Assembly (NCBI GenBank): GCA_020343615.1
Contig: CP070803.1
Coordinates: 628,166 to 692,165, forward strand
DNA: 64,000 bases
Source of the DNA: Candidatus Woesearchaeota archaeon
GTDB lineage: Archaea; Nanobdellota; Nanobdellia; UBA10117; GCA-020343615
Direction: 5' to 3'
A model generated the notes under the pieces. That model saw only the letters and a program-made list of their open reading frames with translations. It did no database searches and was not told where the DNA came from. How positions within the stretch are numbered: position 1 is the stretch's first letter; every line of letters starts with the position of its first letter. The position numbers and the translations under genes were made by a program. Shown here piece after piece: positions 5,118 through 27,575 of the stretch.

Positions 5118-5744
5118 TTAAATAGCTTTTAAATATTTAGTGACAATATCTACAAATCTACGGTTTATTGATATCTTTGGGTATTTATAGATGAATTTAT
5201 TATCATAGTATACTGCTGTCCCTTTTCCTTTCATGCCCTCAATAGAATACACTATTTTGGCTGAATCCTTAGACTTTCCTGTTACATAACTTAACATACT
5301 CTCTATTAACCTATATTCTAGATTAGTCTCAAGTTTAGGGATAGTTTGCTCTTTACTTTCGAGTAGCGAGTCAATTGTTTCATTATCTATTTTTTTATCT
5401 AAAATAACGTTTAGCTCGTATGCGAGTAGTCCCTCCTTACCAAGTCCCTCCTTACCATGCATGTAGATATTAAAAAAGGAGTCTACTCCTTGTGGAAATT
5501 TGTATTTTTCTGTATCAAATTTAAAATCTGAATAATTTAGCTCCCTGTGTTGAGAATTAAAGCTAGCAGAGTTAGATGTAACAAGCGGTGTAATTACTTC
5601 AATTAATATGCCTTGTTTGTTTAGGTTGTGGATAATTACTATTTCTGTTAGCTTTCTTACTCCATCAATAACTTTAGATTTGAAGACTCTAGGATCTAAA
5701 TGTATTTTATTTGATAGAATAATGTAGGGTTTTATATCTACCAT
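5118..5744 (-). CDS. hypothetical protein, paralog pair member A
   Basis: 208 aa. Shares PYIxLSNK, Y(S/K)DxKFD and (V/I)DSxFNxY blocks with the upstream ORF. Contains the in-frame GKEGLGKEGL duplication. Confidence 0.6.
   Translation of the reverse strand: MVDIKPYIILSNKIHLDPRVFKSKVIDGVRKLTEIVIIHNLNKQGILIEVITPLVTSNSASFNSQHRELNYSDFKFDTEKYKFPQGVDSFFNIYMHGKEGLGKEGLLAYELNVILDKKIDNETIDSLLESKEQTIPKLETNLEYRLIESMLSYVTGKSKDSAKIVYSIEGMKGKGTAVYYDNKFIYKYPKISINRRFVDIVTKYLKAI
5428..5457. repeat. perfect 15-bp tandem duplication inside a CDS
   Basis: agtccctccttacca occurs twice back-to-back (5428..5442 and 5443..5457). On the minus strand this encodes GKEGL-GKEGL. Confidence 0.9.
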
Positions 5745-5794
5745 GATTGTTTTAATAAATGGTAAAATTAAAAAGAGTTTCTATTCAAATTGTT

Positions 5795-6361
5795 CTATTC
5801 TAAATATCCTTTAATTACTTCAATAACTCTTTTGTCTATTGGGATTTCATCCCCTCGAAAGAAAAGTTCTTTACCTGTAAAAAATAATTCATTGCTATCT
5901 CCAAATTTTACTAGATGATGTTGAGTTATTAGTGTGGGTTTTTTACGTTTCACTATAGATGTTAGTACATTTGCAAGACTATAGGTAATGCTAGAGAGAA
6001 CCTCTTCTTCATCATTGAGTACAGACTCTAAATAAGGTTGTGAAATCTCTTCTTTCAATTTAATATCTATCTCGTAATAATTAAGATCATCTTTGTTGAG
6101 GACATAGGTATTAAAAATTGAATCTATCTTATCTGGAAGGGGGTTCTTATCTTTGTCAAATTTTAAATCTTTATAAGATATTTCATCTAAAGATATGCTC
6201 GCTTTAGTATGCTGTCTATAGGGGCTACTACATTTTATTTTATTTTTTGTTATGTTCTTATTTGTAAGAGTAATAACTAAGAAGATATCTTCTCTATTTG
6301 ATTTTATCTCCTCGAAACATAGTTTATTTGATAGTTGTATATACGGAACAATACTACTCAT
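5795..6361 (-). CDS. hypothetical protein, paralog pair member B
   Basis: The ORF track starts at a TTG (6406). The ATG at 6361 gives MSSIVPYIQLSNK, which aligns with MVDIKPYIILSNK of the paralog. A 19-nt upstream block is duplicated (5771..5789 = 6389..6407). Confidence 0.55.
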   Translation of the reverse strand: MSSIVPYIQLSNKLCFEEIKSNREDIFLVITLTNKNITKNKIKCSSPYRQHTKASISLDEISYKDLKFDKDKNPLPDKIDSIFNTYVLNKDDLNYYEIDIKLKEEISQPYLESVLNDEEEVLSSITYSLANVLTSIVKRKKPTLITQHHLVKFGDSNELFFTGKELFFRGDEIPIDKRVIEVIKGYLE

Positions 6362-22976: not shown

Positions 22977-23512
22977 AACTTAGATATCTTCTCATAAATA
23001 GGACCATCTGATGTTAAAGTGCTCTTATATAGACAAAAAGAATCTATAGTGATTTCTCCGAACTTAATGTCTTTGTTTTTTTCAAAAAAAGAGGAGGCTT
23101 TATCTTTATTTGATATATTCTTAACTCTTGATAAGGTAATATGCGGCTCAAAGTTTCTATCCTTATGGAAGATATCCTTTAGTTTTTCATCAATCAAATT
23201 ATGCAGCTCTATAATCTCCTTTCTACCTTTATTAGCTCCAATCCACAATACCTTCACGTAATGCTTACTAGGGAAGGCTCTGATACCTTCCAAAGAAGCA
23301 GTAAAAGGCGTATACTTAATCTCACTAAGTAATCTCTCTACTTCCTCGATCTTACTAAGATCAACTTCTCCGAGGAACTTCAAAGATATATGCAAATTTT
23401 CAGATTCTACATATTTTCCGTAGAAGACGCCCATATGATCGGTTTGTTTAATAAACCTATTTACTTCCTCTCTCAAATTTTCCGATAAGTCAATACCGAC
23501 GAAACAACGCAT
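22961..23512 (-). CDS. thpR: 2H-phosphoesterase, RNA 2',3'-cyclic phosphodiesterase / 2'-5' RNA ligase (ThpR/LigT)
   Basis: Two HxT/S motifs, HISLKFLG and HITLSRV; 183 aa. Confidence 0.85.
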   Translation of the reverse strand: MRCFVGIDLSENLREEVNRFIKQTDHMGVFYGKYVESENLHISLKFLGEVDLSKIEEVERLLSEIKYTPFTASLEGIRAFPSKHYVKVLWIGANKGRKEIIELHNLIDEKLKDIFHKDRNFEPHITLSRVKNISNKDKASSFFEKNKDIKFGEITIDSFCLYKSTLTSDGPIYEKISKFQLGR

Positions 23513-23605
23513 TTTCTTTGGTATATAAATGTTTAAAAATGCTCTTTTTAAATAAATTTTACGATTTTTGAGGTATAATATCTTGTAGTAAATAAATGCT
23601 TTTAA

Positions 23606-23652
23606 ATACCATATGTTGTAAGTATAATAACATACAGCACAATATCTTGTAT
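23606..23652. promoter_or_regulatory. two tandem NrdR-box-like palindromes upstream of nrdR-nrdD
   Basis: Compared with the bacterial NrdR-box consensus acaCwAtATaTwGtgt:
- Box B 23637..23652 gcacaatatcttgtat matches 13/16.
- Box A 23606..23621 ataccatatgttgtaa matches about 10/16.
Their starts are 31 bp apart (three helical turns). Box B ends 15 nt before the nrdR ATG. Confidence 0.5.
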
Positions 23653-23667
23653 ATTTGTAGGTTTACG

Positions 23668-24111
23668 ATGAAGTGTCCGTATTGCAATTTTGAAGAAACA
23701 AGAGTGGTGGACTCCAGAGAAACTGAAGATCTAAAAACCACTAGAAGAAGGAGAGAATGTGCAATCTGTAAAAAGAGATTTACAACATACGAAAGAATAG
23801 AAAATGGTTTTCTAGTTGTTATCAAGAAAGATGGCAGGAGAGAAACATTTGACAGAGATAAACTTATGCGGAGCATATTGAAAGCTTGCGAAAAAAGGCC
23901 TATAAACATAAGAACAATTGAAAAGATAGTGCAGGATATCGAAGACGAACTGAGAAAAGAAGGAGAGATAGAAGTTTCTAGTAAAATTATAGGAGAAATG
24001 GTCATAGAACGATTGAAGAAATTAGATAAAGTTTCCTACATTCGTTTTGCTTCTGTTTATAGAGAATTCGAAGACATTAGCCAATTCATTAAAGAGGTGA
24101 ATGATTTATGA
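23668..24111 (+). CDS. nrdR: NrdR transcriptional repressor (Zn-ribbon plus ATP-cone)
   Basis: MKCPYCNFEETRVVDSRETEDLKTTRRRRECAICKKRFTTYERIE is the canonical NrdR N-terminus, followed by an ATP-cone. The ATG at 23668 is preferred over the listed 23596. Confidence 0.9.
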   Translation: MKCPYCNFEETRVVDSRETEDLKTTRRRRECAICKKRFTTYERIENGFLVVIKKDGRRETFDRDKLMRSILKACEKRPINIRTIEKIVQDIEDELRKEGEIEVSSKIIGEMVIERLKKLDKVSYIRFASVYREFEDISQFIKEVNDL

Positions 24112-26144
24112 TAAAATACGTTAAGAAAAGAATTGGTAGAATAGTGAAATTCAATAAAGAAAAAATTACTGAAGCTATTTTTAAAGCAGCCCAAGCAGTA
24201 GGAGGAAAAGATAAAAAACTATCTGCGAAGCTTGCTGATAAAGTTGTAAAACTACTAGAAGAAGAGTTTGATGGTAGAATCCCAACTGTTGAAGATGTAC
24301 AAAATAAAGTAGAAAAAATATTAATAGAAAATGGACACGCAGCAACAGCTAAAGCGTATATTCTCTACAGAGAGCAGCATAAGAACATAAGAGAAACAAC
24401 TCAATTATTGAGAGATATTAGAGTAGTTGATGACTATGTAAAAGAATTAGATTGGAGAATAAGAGAAAACAGCAATATGACTTATTCTTTGCAAGGGTTG
24501 AATGTAAACATAACAGAAAAAGTAATTTCAAATTATTGGTTAAATAATATTTACCCTAAAGAAATAAGAGAGAGTCACATTGACGGAGATTTTCATATTC
24601 ATGATTTAGGAACTTTAGGAGCTTATTGTGTAGGATGGGATTTACAAGATTTAATTGCAGTAGGTTTCAAAGGAGTAAGAGGTAAGATAGAAAGTAAGCC
24701 AGCGAAACACTTTGATGTAGCGTTGATGCAACTGGTGAATTTTCTTTATACATTACAAGGAGAAGCAGCAGGAGCTCAGGCGGTTTCTAACTTTGATACA
24801 TTGCTAGCTCCATTTATAAGATATGACAATCTCAATGAAAAGCAAGTAAAACAAGCAGTACAGAAGTTTTTATTTAATATGAATGTCCCAACAAGAGTTG
24901 GCTTCCAAACCCCCTTCACAAATGTAACTCTTGATTTGAAATATCCACAGTATATGAGAAAAGAGAATGCTATTGTAGGTGGGAAATTACAAAAAGAAAC
25001 ATATGAGGAATTCCAACCTGAAGCAGATGTAATAAATAAAGTTTTTGCAGAGGTTATGCTTAAAGGAGACGCAAAAGGAAGACCATTTACTTTTCCAATC
25101 CCTACATACAATATAACAAAGGATTTTGATTGGGACAATAAAAACTATGATGGAATATGGGAGATGACAGCAAAATACGGAATTCCGTATTTCGCTAATT
25201 TTGTCAATTCTGATATGCACCCAGATGATGCAAGAAGTATGTGTTGCAGATTAAGGTTGGACAAGAGAGAACTAAGAAAAAGAGGCGGAGGATTATTTGG
25301 ATCAAATCCATTAACAGGATCCATAGGAGTTGTAACAATAAATATGCCTCGTATAGCTTACAAATCTAAAGAAGAGGCAGACTTTTTCGAAACACTCGGA
25401 AGATTAATGGATAGAGCTATGGAAAGCTTAATCATAAAAAGAGAGATTTTAGAGAGATTCACAGAGAGAGGTCTTTATCCTTATAGTAAATTTTACTTAA
25501 GAGAGATATATAAAGCATTTGGAGAATATTGGAAAAATCATTTCTCAACAATAGGTCTTATTGGAATGAATGATGCTCTAATAAATATACTTGATTTAGA
25601 TATTTCAACAAAAGATGGAATAAAGTTCGCAAATAAAACTCTTGACTTTATGAGAGAAAGACTTGCAGATTATCAAGAAGAGACAGGGAATATCTTTAAT
25701 TTAGAAGCTACACCTGGAGAAGGAACTTCATATAGATTAGCTAAACTTGACAGAAACAAGTATCCAGATATTAAGATATATAACCAAGAGATATACAAAA
25801 AAAACGCAGAGCCCTATTATACCAACAGTTCACATCTTCCAGTAGGATTTACAGATGATATGTTTGAAGCATTGAAGCTACAAGACTCATTACAAATTAA
25901 ATATACCGGCGGAACAGTACTACATGGTTTTATTGGAGAAGCTATGCCAAGTATAGAATCTATTAAAACCTTAATAAGGAACATAGCACATAATTTCCAT
26001 TTACCTTATTATACTGTTACTCCCACATTTAGTATTTGTCCAGTACACGGTTATTTATCTGGAGCACACAAATACTGCCCAAAATGTGACGAAGAAATTG
26101 AATGTATCGCAAGAGGTAGAAAAAATGAAAAAAGCAGAATCTAA
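24108..26144 (+). CDS. nrdD: anaerobic (class III) ribonucleoside-triphosphate reductase NrdD, main body; reading frame ends before the glycyl-radical motif
   Basis: N-terminal ATP-cone and a long class III RNR core. Ends with a C-terminal Cys cluster, CPKCDEEIEC, then a stop at 26142..26144. Confidence 0.88.
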   Translation: MIKYVKKRIGRIVKFNKEKITEAIFKAAQAVGGKDKKLSAKLADKVVKLLEEEFDGRIPTVEDVQNKVEKILIENGHAATAKAYILYREQHKNIRETTQLLRDIRVVDDYVKELDWRIRENSNMTYSLQGLNVNITEKVISNYWLNNIYPKEIRESHIDGDFHIHDLGTLGAYCVGWDLQDLIAVGFKGVRGKIESKPAKHFDVALMQLVNFLYTLQGEAAGAQAVSNFDTLLAPFIRYDNLNEKQVKQAVQKFLFNMNVPTRVGFQTPFTNVTLDLKYPQYMRKENAIVGGKLQKETYEEFQPEADVINKVFAEVMLKGDAKGRPFTFPIPTYNITKDFDWDNKNYDGIWEMTAKYGIPYFANFVNSDMHPDDARSMCCRLRLDKRELRKRGGGLFGSNPLTGSIGVVTINMPRIAYKSKEEADFFETLGRLMDRAMESLIIKREILERFTERGLYPYSKFYLREIYKAFGEYWKNHFSTIGLIGMNDALINILDLDISTKDGIKFANKTLDFMRERLADYQEETGNIFNLEATPGEGTSYRLAKLDRNKYPDIKIYNQEIYKKNAEPYYTNSSHLPVGFTDDMFEALKLQDSLQIKYTGGTVLHGFIGEAMPSIESIKTLIRNIAHNFHLPYYTVTPTFSICPVHGYLSGAHKYCPKCDEEIECIARGRKNEKSRI

Positions 26145-26295
26145 GAAAAAAAGAACTAAATGTGAAATTTGGTCTAGAGCTGTAGGTTATTTGAGACCTG
26201 TAGAACAGTGGCACTCTGGCAAGCAAGCAGAGTTCAAAGATAGAAAAACTTATGATAAACAGTGCAGCGATAACCCAGCGAATCTAGGAAATTAA
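26086..26295 (+). CDS. nrdD: NrdD C-terminal glycyl-radical segment in the +1 frame (frameshifted or split nrdD tail)
   Basis: CEIWSRAVGYLRPVEQWHSGKQAEFKDRK matches the class III RNR glycyl-radical motif (xSRxxGYxRPVxxWNxGKxxEFxDR). Overlaps the main ORF across A6 runs at 26120..26125 and 26128..26133. Confidence 0.8.
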   Translation: MTKKLNVSQEVEKMKKAESKKKRTKCEIWSRAVGYLRPVEQWHSGKQAEFKDRKTYDKQCSDNPANLGN

Positions 26296-26303
26296 TTGTT
26301 CAA

Positions 26304-26990
26304 ATGAAAATCGGAGCAATCCTCCCCCAGAGCTTAATAGACTATCCTGGGAAGGTCTCCGCAGTATTTTTTACAATTGGATGTAATTTTAAGTGCCCTT
26401 ATTGTTATAATACAAAATTAGCTTTAGGTAAAATAAAACAACTAACGAAAGAAAAAATAGAACATTTTTTAGAAGAAAGAAAAAATTTCATTAATGCAGT
26501 AGTTCTTAGCGGAGGAGAACCCCTTTTACAAAAAGATATTGTTAATTTTGCTAAAAAAATAAAGAAGCATAATCTACTATTCGGGATAGAGACTAATGGT
26601 TCTCAACCAAAAATATTGGAAAAACTCCTAAAAGAAAAGCTTCTTGACTTTGTTGCAATGGATATTAAATCAGATTTTGATAGTTACAAAAATGCCACAG
26701 GAGTAAATGTAAACAAAGAAAACATACTAAAGAGCATAAATCTCTTGAAAAAATCAAAGATACAATATGAATTTAGGATTACTGCAGTTCCTAAATTAAT
26801 AAAAAAAACAGAATTAAAAAAGATAAGTAAATTAGTAAGAGGATCTAAAGTTGTTTTACAACAGTTTGTTAATGATAAAGATATGATTGACAATAAACTC
26901 AAAAAATTAAAACCTTATTCATCAAAAAAACTTGAAGAGTTTAAAGAAGCGCTATCAGAATGTTCTAAAGTAGAGATAAGAATATCTTAA
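26304..26990 (+). CDS. nrdG: anaerobic RNR activating enzyme (radical SAM)
   Basis: GCNFKCPYCYN radical-SAM cluster motif, LSGGEPLL; 228 aa, directly downstream of nrdD. Confidence 0.85.
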   Translation: MKIGAILPQSLIDYPGKVSAVFFTIGCNFKCPYCYNTKLALGKIKQLTKEKIEHFLEERKNFINAVVLSGGEPLLQKDIVNFAKKIKKHNLLFGIETNGSQPKILEKLLKEKLLDFVAMDIKSDFDSYKNATGVNVNKENILKSINLLKKSKIQYEFRITAVPKLIKKTELKKISKLVRGSKVVLQQFVNDKDMIDNKLKKLKPYSSKKLEEFKEALSECSKVEIRIS

Positions 26991-27026
26991 AAAAATATAT
27001 AAGCTCTTAATGCTTTTTTATATTTA

Positions 27027-27575
27027 ATGCCTAAAATAATCGGGATAGCTGGAATGCCAGCTGCAGGTAAAACCACAGTCGCTAAAGCCTTAAATAAAGA
27101 CGGAATTAAACTAATACATCTAGGCGATTTCATTTGGGAATATCTTAAAAGAAAACACATAAGAAGAAACCAAGAAACAGGGAATATGACTTCTCTTTAT
27201 TTTTGGGCAGAATACAGAGATATCCCAATAGCTGAATGGGCTTATGAACAGATAAAGAAAACTAAATACAAAAGTTATATTGTAGATGGAATAAGAACAC
27301 TAGAGGAGGTTTTATTTTTTAAAAGTAAGTTCAAAAATAATTTTAAATTAATATCAATTGTAGCTTCACCAGCTACAAGAAAATCAAGAGAAAAAAAGAG
27401 GAAACGTTTTTCCAAAGTTAATTTTGAGATGAGGGATAAAGAAGAATTAACCATCGGAGTTGGGGATGTAATAGCTTCTTCTGATTATTATATTGATGGA
27501 AACAAAACAAAGAAAGAAGTAGTATTGCAGGCTAATCAAATATTCAGAAAAATAGCCTGGGGGAAAAGTTTATAA
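27027..27575 (+). CDS. P-loop nucleotide/nucleoside kinase (dephospho-CoA-kinase-like / UPF0200-like)
   Basis: IIGIAGMPAAGKTTVAKAL Walker A at the N-terminus; 182 aa. Confidence 0.5.
   Translation: MPKIIGIAGMPAAGKTTVAKALNKDGIKLIHLGDFIWEYLKRKHIRRNQETGNMTSLYFWAEYRDIPIAEWAYEQIKKTKYKSYIVDGIRTLEEVLFFKSKFKNNFKLISIVASPATRKSREKKRKRFSKVNFEMRDKEELTIGVGDVIASSDYYIDGNKTKKEVVLQANQIFRKIAWGKSL

Follow-up and report, generated by a model that had tools for sequence, protein, structure and literature searches.

The divided nrdD locus

Class III ribonucleotide reductase (NrdD) is, in textbooks, a single chain that bears its own glycyl radical. In the genome of a Candidatus Woesearchaeota archaeon, we find an nrdD gene that is divided between two overlapping open reading frames (ORFs), the second of which carries the predicted radical glycine. 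The locus lies in a 64,000-nucleotide stretch of forward strand (GenBank assembly GCA_020343615.1, contig CP070803.1, positions 628,166 to 692,165) that was analyzed as a whole and that we call the window. The features of the locus are listed below in window coordinates.

23668..24111, + strand: nrdR, encoding the repressor with a Zn-ribbon and an ATP-cone (Pfam PF22811 and PF03477, translation)
24094..24098, + strand: Shine-Dalgarno (SD) sequence GAGGT of the nrdD body, one of 15 GAGGT-N5-9-ATG sites in the window
24108..26144, + strand: nrdD body, 678 residues, 78 kDa, with ATP-cone, catalytic barrel, and C-terminal metal cluster, without the radical glycine
26037..26087, + strand: codons of the predicted metal-binding knuckles CPVH...CPKC, both on the body (from the sequence)
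26113..26117, + strand: GAGGT, SD sequence for the small subunit, within the 3' end of the body gene and separated from the ATG by 7 nt
26120..26125 and 26128..26133, + strand: two A6 runs, dispensable for expression in our reading
26125..26295, + strand: glycyl-radical small subunit gene, 56 residues, 6.6 kDa, isoelectric point 9.7, in the +1 frame relative to the body (Pfam NRDD 532-562)
26125..26144, + strand: overlap of the two cistrons, 20 nt
26185..26187, + strand: GGT codon of the predicted radical glycine, Gly21 in RAVGY (invariant column in 36 small subunits)
26304..26990, + strand: nrdG, radical S-adenosylmethionine activase with the motif CNFKCPYC (Pfam PF04055 and PF13353), starting 8 nt past the small gene

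The first-pass annotation, which was made from the sequence alone, ended a 678-residue NrdD ORF at 26144 after a Cys cluster and placed the glycyl-radical motif in a +1-frame ORF at 26086..26295. Our coordinates and translations agree with both statements, as does the Pfam assignment of the second ORF. The body ends in ...CPKCDEEIECIARGRKNEKSRI (the same end is also given as ...TPTFSICPVHGYLSGAHKYCPKCDEEIECIARGRKNEKSRI), and its Pfam matches comprise an ATP-cone and positions 1-538 of the 562-position NRDD profile (PF13597; E = 2.7e-178). The finger-loop Cys pair is found as MCCR at residue 378, in a column that is invariant among relatives, and a predicted metal-binding cluster, C644-x2-H647...C657-x2-C660, precedes the stop codon, which falls 18 residues past C660. 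The mechanically defined ORF in the +1 frame contains SRAVGYLRPVEQWHSGKQAEFKDRK and encodes ...MKKAESKKKRTKCEIWSRAVGYLRPVEQWHSGKQAEFKDRK...; it matches NRDD positions 532-562 only and has no match to the Gly_radical family of pyruvate formate-lyase (PFL), so that body and small ORF jointly span NRDD 1-562. The locus has the NRDD domain with finger-loop Cys, the C-terminal Cys/His knuckles, and the nrdG gene of a class III NrdD, but the radical glycine (RxxGY) is not on the chain of the barrel and occurs instead as RAVGY in the +1 frame.

The small gene almost certainly starts at ATG 26125, as judged from the signals that surround this codon, and its product would then read MKKAESKKKRTKCEIWSRAVGYLRPVEQWHSGKQAEFKDRKTYDKQCSDNPANLGN. 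The combination GAGGT-N5-9-ATG is found 15 times in the window against 5.1 expected, an approximately 3-fold excess that was reached in 0 of 100 shuffles. At the small-gene start, GAGG is kept in the two closest relatives (loci L056 and L057), and GAGGTG and AAGGTG are found in the more distant L280 and L281. In L057, stops separate the ATG from the GTG and TTG codons upstream of it, so only the ATG can start the peptide, and a 6-nt insertion leaves the small frame open. On this sequence evidence, ribosomes initiate the 56-residue peptide on its own at ATG 26125, behind its own GAGGT. The 59-nt overlap reported in the first-pass annotation holds when it is counted from the mechanical GTG start and shrinks to 20 nt from the likely ATG.

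Both genes that flank the divided nrdD are intact by Pfam, as had been noted before. The stop codon of nrdR and the start codon of nrdD overlap as ATGA. The nrdR gene is of bacterial type in an archaeal genome, and the nrdR-nrdD linkage also occurs in the relatives L056, L280, and L198. An Rfam scan of the window gave no match, and hence no known frameshift or regulatory RNA element. A scan of 23300..27300 for sigma-70 promoters and terminators found nothing above shuffle level, the sigma-70 model not being applicable to archaeal promoters.

Split and fused nrdD genes among relatives

We searched the 56-residue peptide against a large protein collection and obtained 84 clusters of stand-alone small proteins of 36-90 residues, every one with an NRDD Pfam match. 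The 56-residue protein itself is called as such in an independent assembly (P0001). The two closest small proteins are 91% and 84% identical and come from separate sequencing runs (SRR21285571 for L056 and SRR7615342 for L057); both loci show an nrdD body of 678 residues, a 20-nt overlap, the small ORF, and nrdG. At 71-73% identity, L280 (ERR6290779) and L281 (SRR32456846) have a 32-nt overlap in the +1 frame, with likely TTG starts. The comparison with nrdD of related genomes that was proposed in the first-pass annotation therefore finds the overlapping two-ORF layout kept in four independent assemblies. The small gene is also under strong purifying selection. The ratio of nonsynonymous to synonymous substitutions (dN/dS, Nei-Gojobori) is 0.10, 0.05, and 0.08 in the three pairs formed by the window, L056, and L057, at proportions of synonymous differences (pS) of 0.41-0.71, and it is 0.08-0.21 in six further pairs. 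Neither relaxed selection (dN/dS near 1) nor further stops were seen in close relatives.

To place the window among its relatives, we searched approximately 800 genomes of its class (here equivalent to the phylum) with the peptide and fetched 127 loci, of which 126 were analyzed together with the window's own locus. In this survey, tblastn places the C terminus of the body and the tail, stop-to-stop frames are compared, and the start of a split locus is taken as the codon with the best upstream match to GGAGGTG. The 126 nrdD loci comprise 56 split, 66 fused, and 4 tail-only cases. Among the 56 split loci, the frame offset is +1 in 29 and +2 in 17, and an in-frame stop separates the two parts in the other 10. 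The start codon is ATG in 52, TTG in 3, and GTG in 1, behind an SD match of 6-7 nt (47 loci), 5 nt (6 loci), or 4 nt (3 loci) with spacers of 3-10 nt. As a control, start codons and SD matches were sought in the same way in the 30 codons preceding the tail of the 66 fused genes; a match of ≥5 nt to GGAGGTG was found in only 1, as opposed to 53/56 split loci. The start lies between -71 and +131 nt from the body stop, with 9 ATGA overlaps and 6 cases in which the ATG directly follows the stop, and the encoded peptide has 39-139 residues (median 50.5). Many bodies have ...GG(E/D)... or ...(K/I)EV... at the C terminus, the in-frame translation of GGAGGTG. An nrdG-like gene is found within 1.3 kb downstream in 45/56 split loci and 48/66 fused loci.

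A pattern scan of all species genomes (Genome Taxonomy Database-wide, narrow alignment) extended these observations. Of the 80 loci that matched this NrdD subtype best, 50 have a split nrdD and 27 a fused one. The split loci among these 80 are found in records titled Aenigmatarchaeota, Woesearchaeota, Micrarchaeota, Iainarchaeum, and Pacearchaeota and also in several Patescibacteria groups, Thermotogae, Bipolaricaulota, and others. Judged from these genes, the arrangement far exceeds chance, since dozens of independent genomes have it together with start signals of its own, and the split is a conserved natural design in about half of the relatives' nrdD copies.

Several of the surveyed loci show further variation. 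In the 139-residue small subunit of L160 (G548:C9:30387-35209), the glycyl-radical tail is joined to a domain resembling glutaredoxin (CPNC), with Pfam matches to NRDD 532-562 and to PF00462 (the latter 28 bits; cut-off, 22.9). This fusion suggests that the reductant is attached to the radical peptide. A second, divergent NrdD clade (L185-L194, for example G040:C1:14500-19500, G084:C18, G267:C3, and G164:C11) is split in every example examined. Its body is 28% identical to that of the window and ends in ...ISPEFTVCxDCxxxSxGYxR*, and the cut falls between the two metal knuckles, the 49-80-residue open frame that follows beginning with CxHCGSxNVYGISRVVGYFS. In L185, the NrdR Zn-ribbon, two ATP-cones, and the NRDD domain share one open frame. 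The bodies on the L281 contig and in L203, L204, L210, L218, L225, L236, L246, and L252 have 900-1000 residues or are open to the edge of the locus. Such long bodies of the subtype would fit inteins within the barrel, unconnected with the C-terminal split. In a metagenome-assembled genome (MAG) of Candidatus Aenigmatarchaeota (L198/L199, JAFGFG010000004.1), the NCBI record has no coding sequence (CDS) between nrdR and a 50-residue tail, where a 1009-residue nrdD body lies; this body has a faint intein match, and a dCMP deaminase gene stands between the tail and nrdG. Finally, L058 (GCA_048616555.1, JBMCJB010000001.1, 5001-5138) is a lone 45-residue NRDD-tail ORF in a MAG labelled Bacillota. 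It is surrounded by approximately 15 tiny ORFs without Pfam matches and has a phage-like look; a PHROG scan of the neighbours gave no phage family match except the tail itself, leaving a phage origin unproven.

Position of the cut and alternative explanations

To map the cut onto known structures, we aligned both parts to solved NrdDs. The body aligns to residues 101-609 of the Thermotoga maritima enzyme (4COI) and to the Prevotella copri enzyme (8P23) up to the CPKC knuckle. A phmmer search of the 56-residue peptide against the Protein Data Bank gave no match, and a profile of 36 small subunits was used instead; it aligns to residues 611-645 of 4COI and 712-737 of 8P23, with its motif on the RxxGY motif of the solved NrdDs. 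Together, these alignments place the cut after the structural metal site and ahead of the buried radical loop. Residues R18, G21, K33, E36, and R40 are invariant in the 36 small subunits. The P. copri radical domain, made up of the Zn site, a buried Gly loop, and a C-terminal tail, is highly dynamic and is fully disordered in the dATP complexes (PMC11226230).

The region of the cut also differs in length between the two gene forms. In fused genes, the TPTFS motif and the radical glycine are 29 residues apart in 36 of 56 measurable cases (median 29) and 42-51 residues apart in 9, whereas the distance summed over both chains of split genes is 34-106 residues (median 54.5). Every split is thus accompanied by extra linker sequence. 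Compared with its closest fused relative, G541 (...CPKCGKICEIWSR...), the window has a 64-nt insert, in which the stop, the SD sequence, and the ATG all lie. The cut takes one of two positions: the whole second knuckle, CxxC, remains on the body in 30/56 loci, including the window, and in the other 26 'CP' alone is on the body and C-x3-C (or a single Cys) is on the peptide. In lineages of the latter type, a metal site may bridge both chains.

We traced the split and fused states on a quick maximum-likelihood tree of 119 bodies, which is unrooted and excludes the trait region. The state changes 18 times on this tree, with at least 12 changes forced by well-supported branches, as compared with a mean of approximately 40 for label shuffles. 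The window pairs with the fused G541 (support 99), and two genomes of the same genus, G006 (split) and G016 (fused), are sisters. From this pattern, we would claim many transitions between the split and fused states but, given an unrooted tree and a quick method, not their direction (fission versus re-fusion). Horizontal transfer and gene conversion are possible in the history of nrdD, and long-linker fused forms such as CPICDEEIGLKKSAKAKSLERKRTRCEVYSR in L220 look like possible re-fusions.

The first-pass annotation had offered four explanations for the two frames, and the survey bears on each of them. The idea that the two frames are joined by programmed +1 ribosomal frameshifting or by transcriptional slippage on the A-runs, giving a single functional chain of approximately 725 residues, is very unlikely in our view and, as principal explanation, refuted. 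It draws on ATGAAAAAAG, an A6 run that is conserved in the window, L056, and L057 and on which the Lys-tRNA could re-pair one base on. The first A6 run, however, reads AAAGAAAA in L056 and L057 and is replaced by unrelated sequence in L280 and L281, both of which lack A6 runs at the junction altogether, and an A7 run inside the small subunit gene (26146..26152, codons KKK) is likewise not conserved, reading CAAAAAAAG in L056 and AAAGAAAAG in L057. An A6 run is also short for efficient transcriptional slippage. Across relatives, moreover, the offset is +1, +2, or 0, and the ATG often lies past the body stop, in which case a frameshift would be unable to link the frames. Programmed frameshifts of the prfB or dnaX type have a conserved slippery site and offset and no independent downstream start; here, neither the site nor the offset is conserved, and a strong SD sequence with a start codon precedes the tail in nearly all split loci and almost never occurs in the fused controls.

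A separate small glycyl-radical protein, the fourth of these explanations, is supported by the survey, although the comparison with Escherichia coli GrcA/YfiD that came with it proves imprecise. A spare part of that type would rescue only an oxygen-damaged, otherwise complete enzyme. The peptide does resemble one in being a small autonomous glycyl-radical protein, and extra tail-only copies in other genomes adjoin peroxiredoxin or rubrerythrin genes. Against this, the body stops short of the radical glycine, the genome has neither another nrdD nor another tail, and the peptide matches Pfam NRDD rather than the Gly_radical family of PFL. A body without a radical domain of its own makes the peptide an obligate, regular subunit, and we consider the spare-part function at this locus less likely still than frameshifting.

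Even less probable, and likewise refuted, is a recent inactivating frameshift that has left nrdD as a decaying pseudogene. The NCBI record of one split relative lists no CDS for the body, which suggests that annotation pipelines regard such genes as broken. The low dN/dS of the detached tail among the relatives that share the split (0.05-0.10), the intact body, nrdR, and nrdG, and the lack of any other ribonucleotide reductase in the window's genome all speak against decay, and a layout kept under such selection in independent relatives is a pattern that neither a recent lesion nor a sequencing error can give. The explanation that fares worst, and that we regard as effectively refuted, is a homopolymer error of sequencing or assembly over a true A5 run and one continuous ORF: the two A6 runs in the overlap are present as first described, and removing one A from the first of them would indeed join the frames, but the +1 layout in four independent assemblies, the replacement of that run by AAAGAAAA or unrelated sequence, the SD sequence and ATG of the small ORF itself, and 56 + 50 further split loci in three frame offsets cannot all be errors.

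A probable two-subunit class III ribonucleotide reductase

We consider it very probable, on the genomic evidence, that nrdD is naturally split in this archaeon, as two cistrons of an nrdR-nrdD(body)-nrdD(radical peptide)-nrdG operon. The window belongs to a 919-kb single-contig genome in which we found no second nrdD and no second tail. A search of this genome with PF02867, the large subunit of class I/II reductases, gave no match, although the same search was positive in 12/14 control genomes. With no class I/II reductase, the split enzyme would be the sole recognizable route to deoxynucleotides and would have to work.

Some points weigh against this interpretation. DPANN archaea, as symbionts, may scavenge deoxynucleosides, and the step from sole reductase to functional enzyme is an inferred one. 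A minor fused product may arise at the window locus through a +1 slip on the conserved ATGAAAAAAG. The association of the two chains and the activation of the peptide are likewise predictions from comparison with one-piece enzymes. An AlphaFold2 model of the long-linker fused relative L220, built from a 15-sequence alignment, has a mean predicted local distance difference test score of 76 but only 31-65 in the last 80 residues, too poor to inform on the linker or on docking.

If the enzyme is indeed composed of two subunits, its assembly could proceed as follows. Translational coupling through the 20-nt overlap would yield both products in roughly equal amounts. The peptide would correspond exactly to the portion of a one-piece NrdD that follows the structural metal site, namely the buried radical-Gly loop and the C-terminal tail, and its Gly loop would dock in the 78-kDa body's barrel without covalent attachment. 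NrdG would take the hydrogen from Gly21, and the glycyl radical would in turn generate a thiyl radical on the finger-loop Cys (MCCR, residue 378), as in the one-piece enzymes. A linker at the cut that tolerates insertions in relatives, together with the mobility of the radical domain in solved NrdDs, would explain how a split enzyme can work and why the split has arisen or reverted repeatedly.

We also advance, tentatively and as an unlikely extension, the idea that the detached peptide is an exchangeable, sacrificial radical carrier that NrdG activates free in solution, a fresh 6.6-kDa peptide replacing one cleaved by oxygen. If so, the 78-kDa body would be spared remaking after oxygen damage. 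A replaceable carrier would explain the dozen or more splits (or kept splits) in tiny-genome archaea and bacteria at oxic-anoxic interfaces and the extra tail-only copies near peroxiredoxin or rubrerythrin genes in two genomes. Its support is circumstantial and comes from other genomes. In G321 (L195, G321:C34, about 5741-5872), a second tail-only gene lies approximately 0.7 kb upstream of an AhpC/TSA peroxiredoxin gene, and in G473 (L197, G473:C63, 4643-5162), two tandem tail ORFs, each with a Cys-rich, Zn-ribbon-like N terminus, adjoin a rubrerythrin gene. These ORFs have no nrdD body nearby, and both genomes also contain a regular nrdD. They are candidates for true spare parts.

The split enzyme shares much with known systems. 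The one-piece NrdD and NrdG pairs of phage T4 (1H78/1H79), T. maritima (4COI/4U3E), and P. copri (8P23) have in common with it the ATP-cone, the barrel with finger-loop Cys, the Cys/His metal site, the RxxGY motif followed by a W-N-x-G-K-x2-E-F-x-D-R tail, the adjacent nrdG, and control by nrdR. The window's chain differs in being interrupted after the metal site and before the radical loop, with the end of the radical domain forming a 56-residue protein that has its own start. The PFL cofactors GrcA/YfiD of E. coli and Y06I of phage T4 are likewise small stand-alone glycyl-radical proteins that insert into the barrel of a larger enzyme. GrcA, however, is homologous to the C terminus of PFL, whereas the window peptide belongs to the NrdD family; and the partner of GrcA comes with a radical domain and depends on GrcA only once oxygen cleavage has occurred, whereas the window peptide is the sole radical carrier. 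Formate lyases form the sole class of glycyl-radical enzymes with known spare-part proteins (2026 review, PMC13450708).

Division of a reductase chain is known from class II. In the split NrdJa/NrdJb of Pseudomonas aeruginosa (Crona et al. 2015, as cited in PMC9669993), the catalytic chain is likewise encoded by two consecutive, sometimes overlapping ORFs, with the Cys-rich C-terminal part on the second chain. That enzyme belongs to the B12-dependent class, and its large second chain carries reductant-shuttling domains rather than a radical cofactor. The window and its relatives have the same hallmark of two adjacent ORFs that cover one catalytic chain and are conserved across species, but in class III and not class II. 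Phage nrdD genes can also be split, by group I introns and homing endonucleases (PMC3653736). Those are interruptions by mobile elements that are mostly repaired by splicing, whereas the window junction consists of a stop, an SD sequence, and a start only; no intron, intein, or endonuclease was found there. No account of a split class III reductase came up in full-text literature searches, and a two-subunit class III ribonucleotide reductase is apparently undescribed in print.

The interest of the finding rests on this architecture and not on the window locus alone, which is one ordinary case among many; what the window adds is a DPANN survey with counts, the +1 overlap and the 64-nt insert that goes with it, the two places of the cut, and the number of transitions. 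A radical carried on a separate peptide of 40-80 residues bears on how the activase gains access to a buried glycine, since a free peptide would be an easy substrate, and on whether glycyl-radical enzymes besides PFL can swap damaged radical domains. It bears as well on a possible inter-chain metal site in lineages cut through the second knuckle, and the installation of the radical could be studied in an enzyme that already comes in two pieces. The bodies of split nrdD genes seem to be omitted by annotation pipelines or turned into pseudogenes. Such genes tend to be annotated as frameshifted or as pseudogenes, or the small ORF goes unnoticed, and many DPANN and candidate phyla radiation organisms would then wrongly seem to lack a working ribonucleotide reductase.

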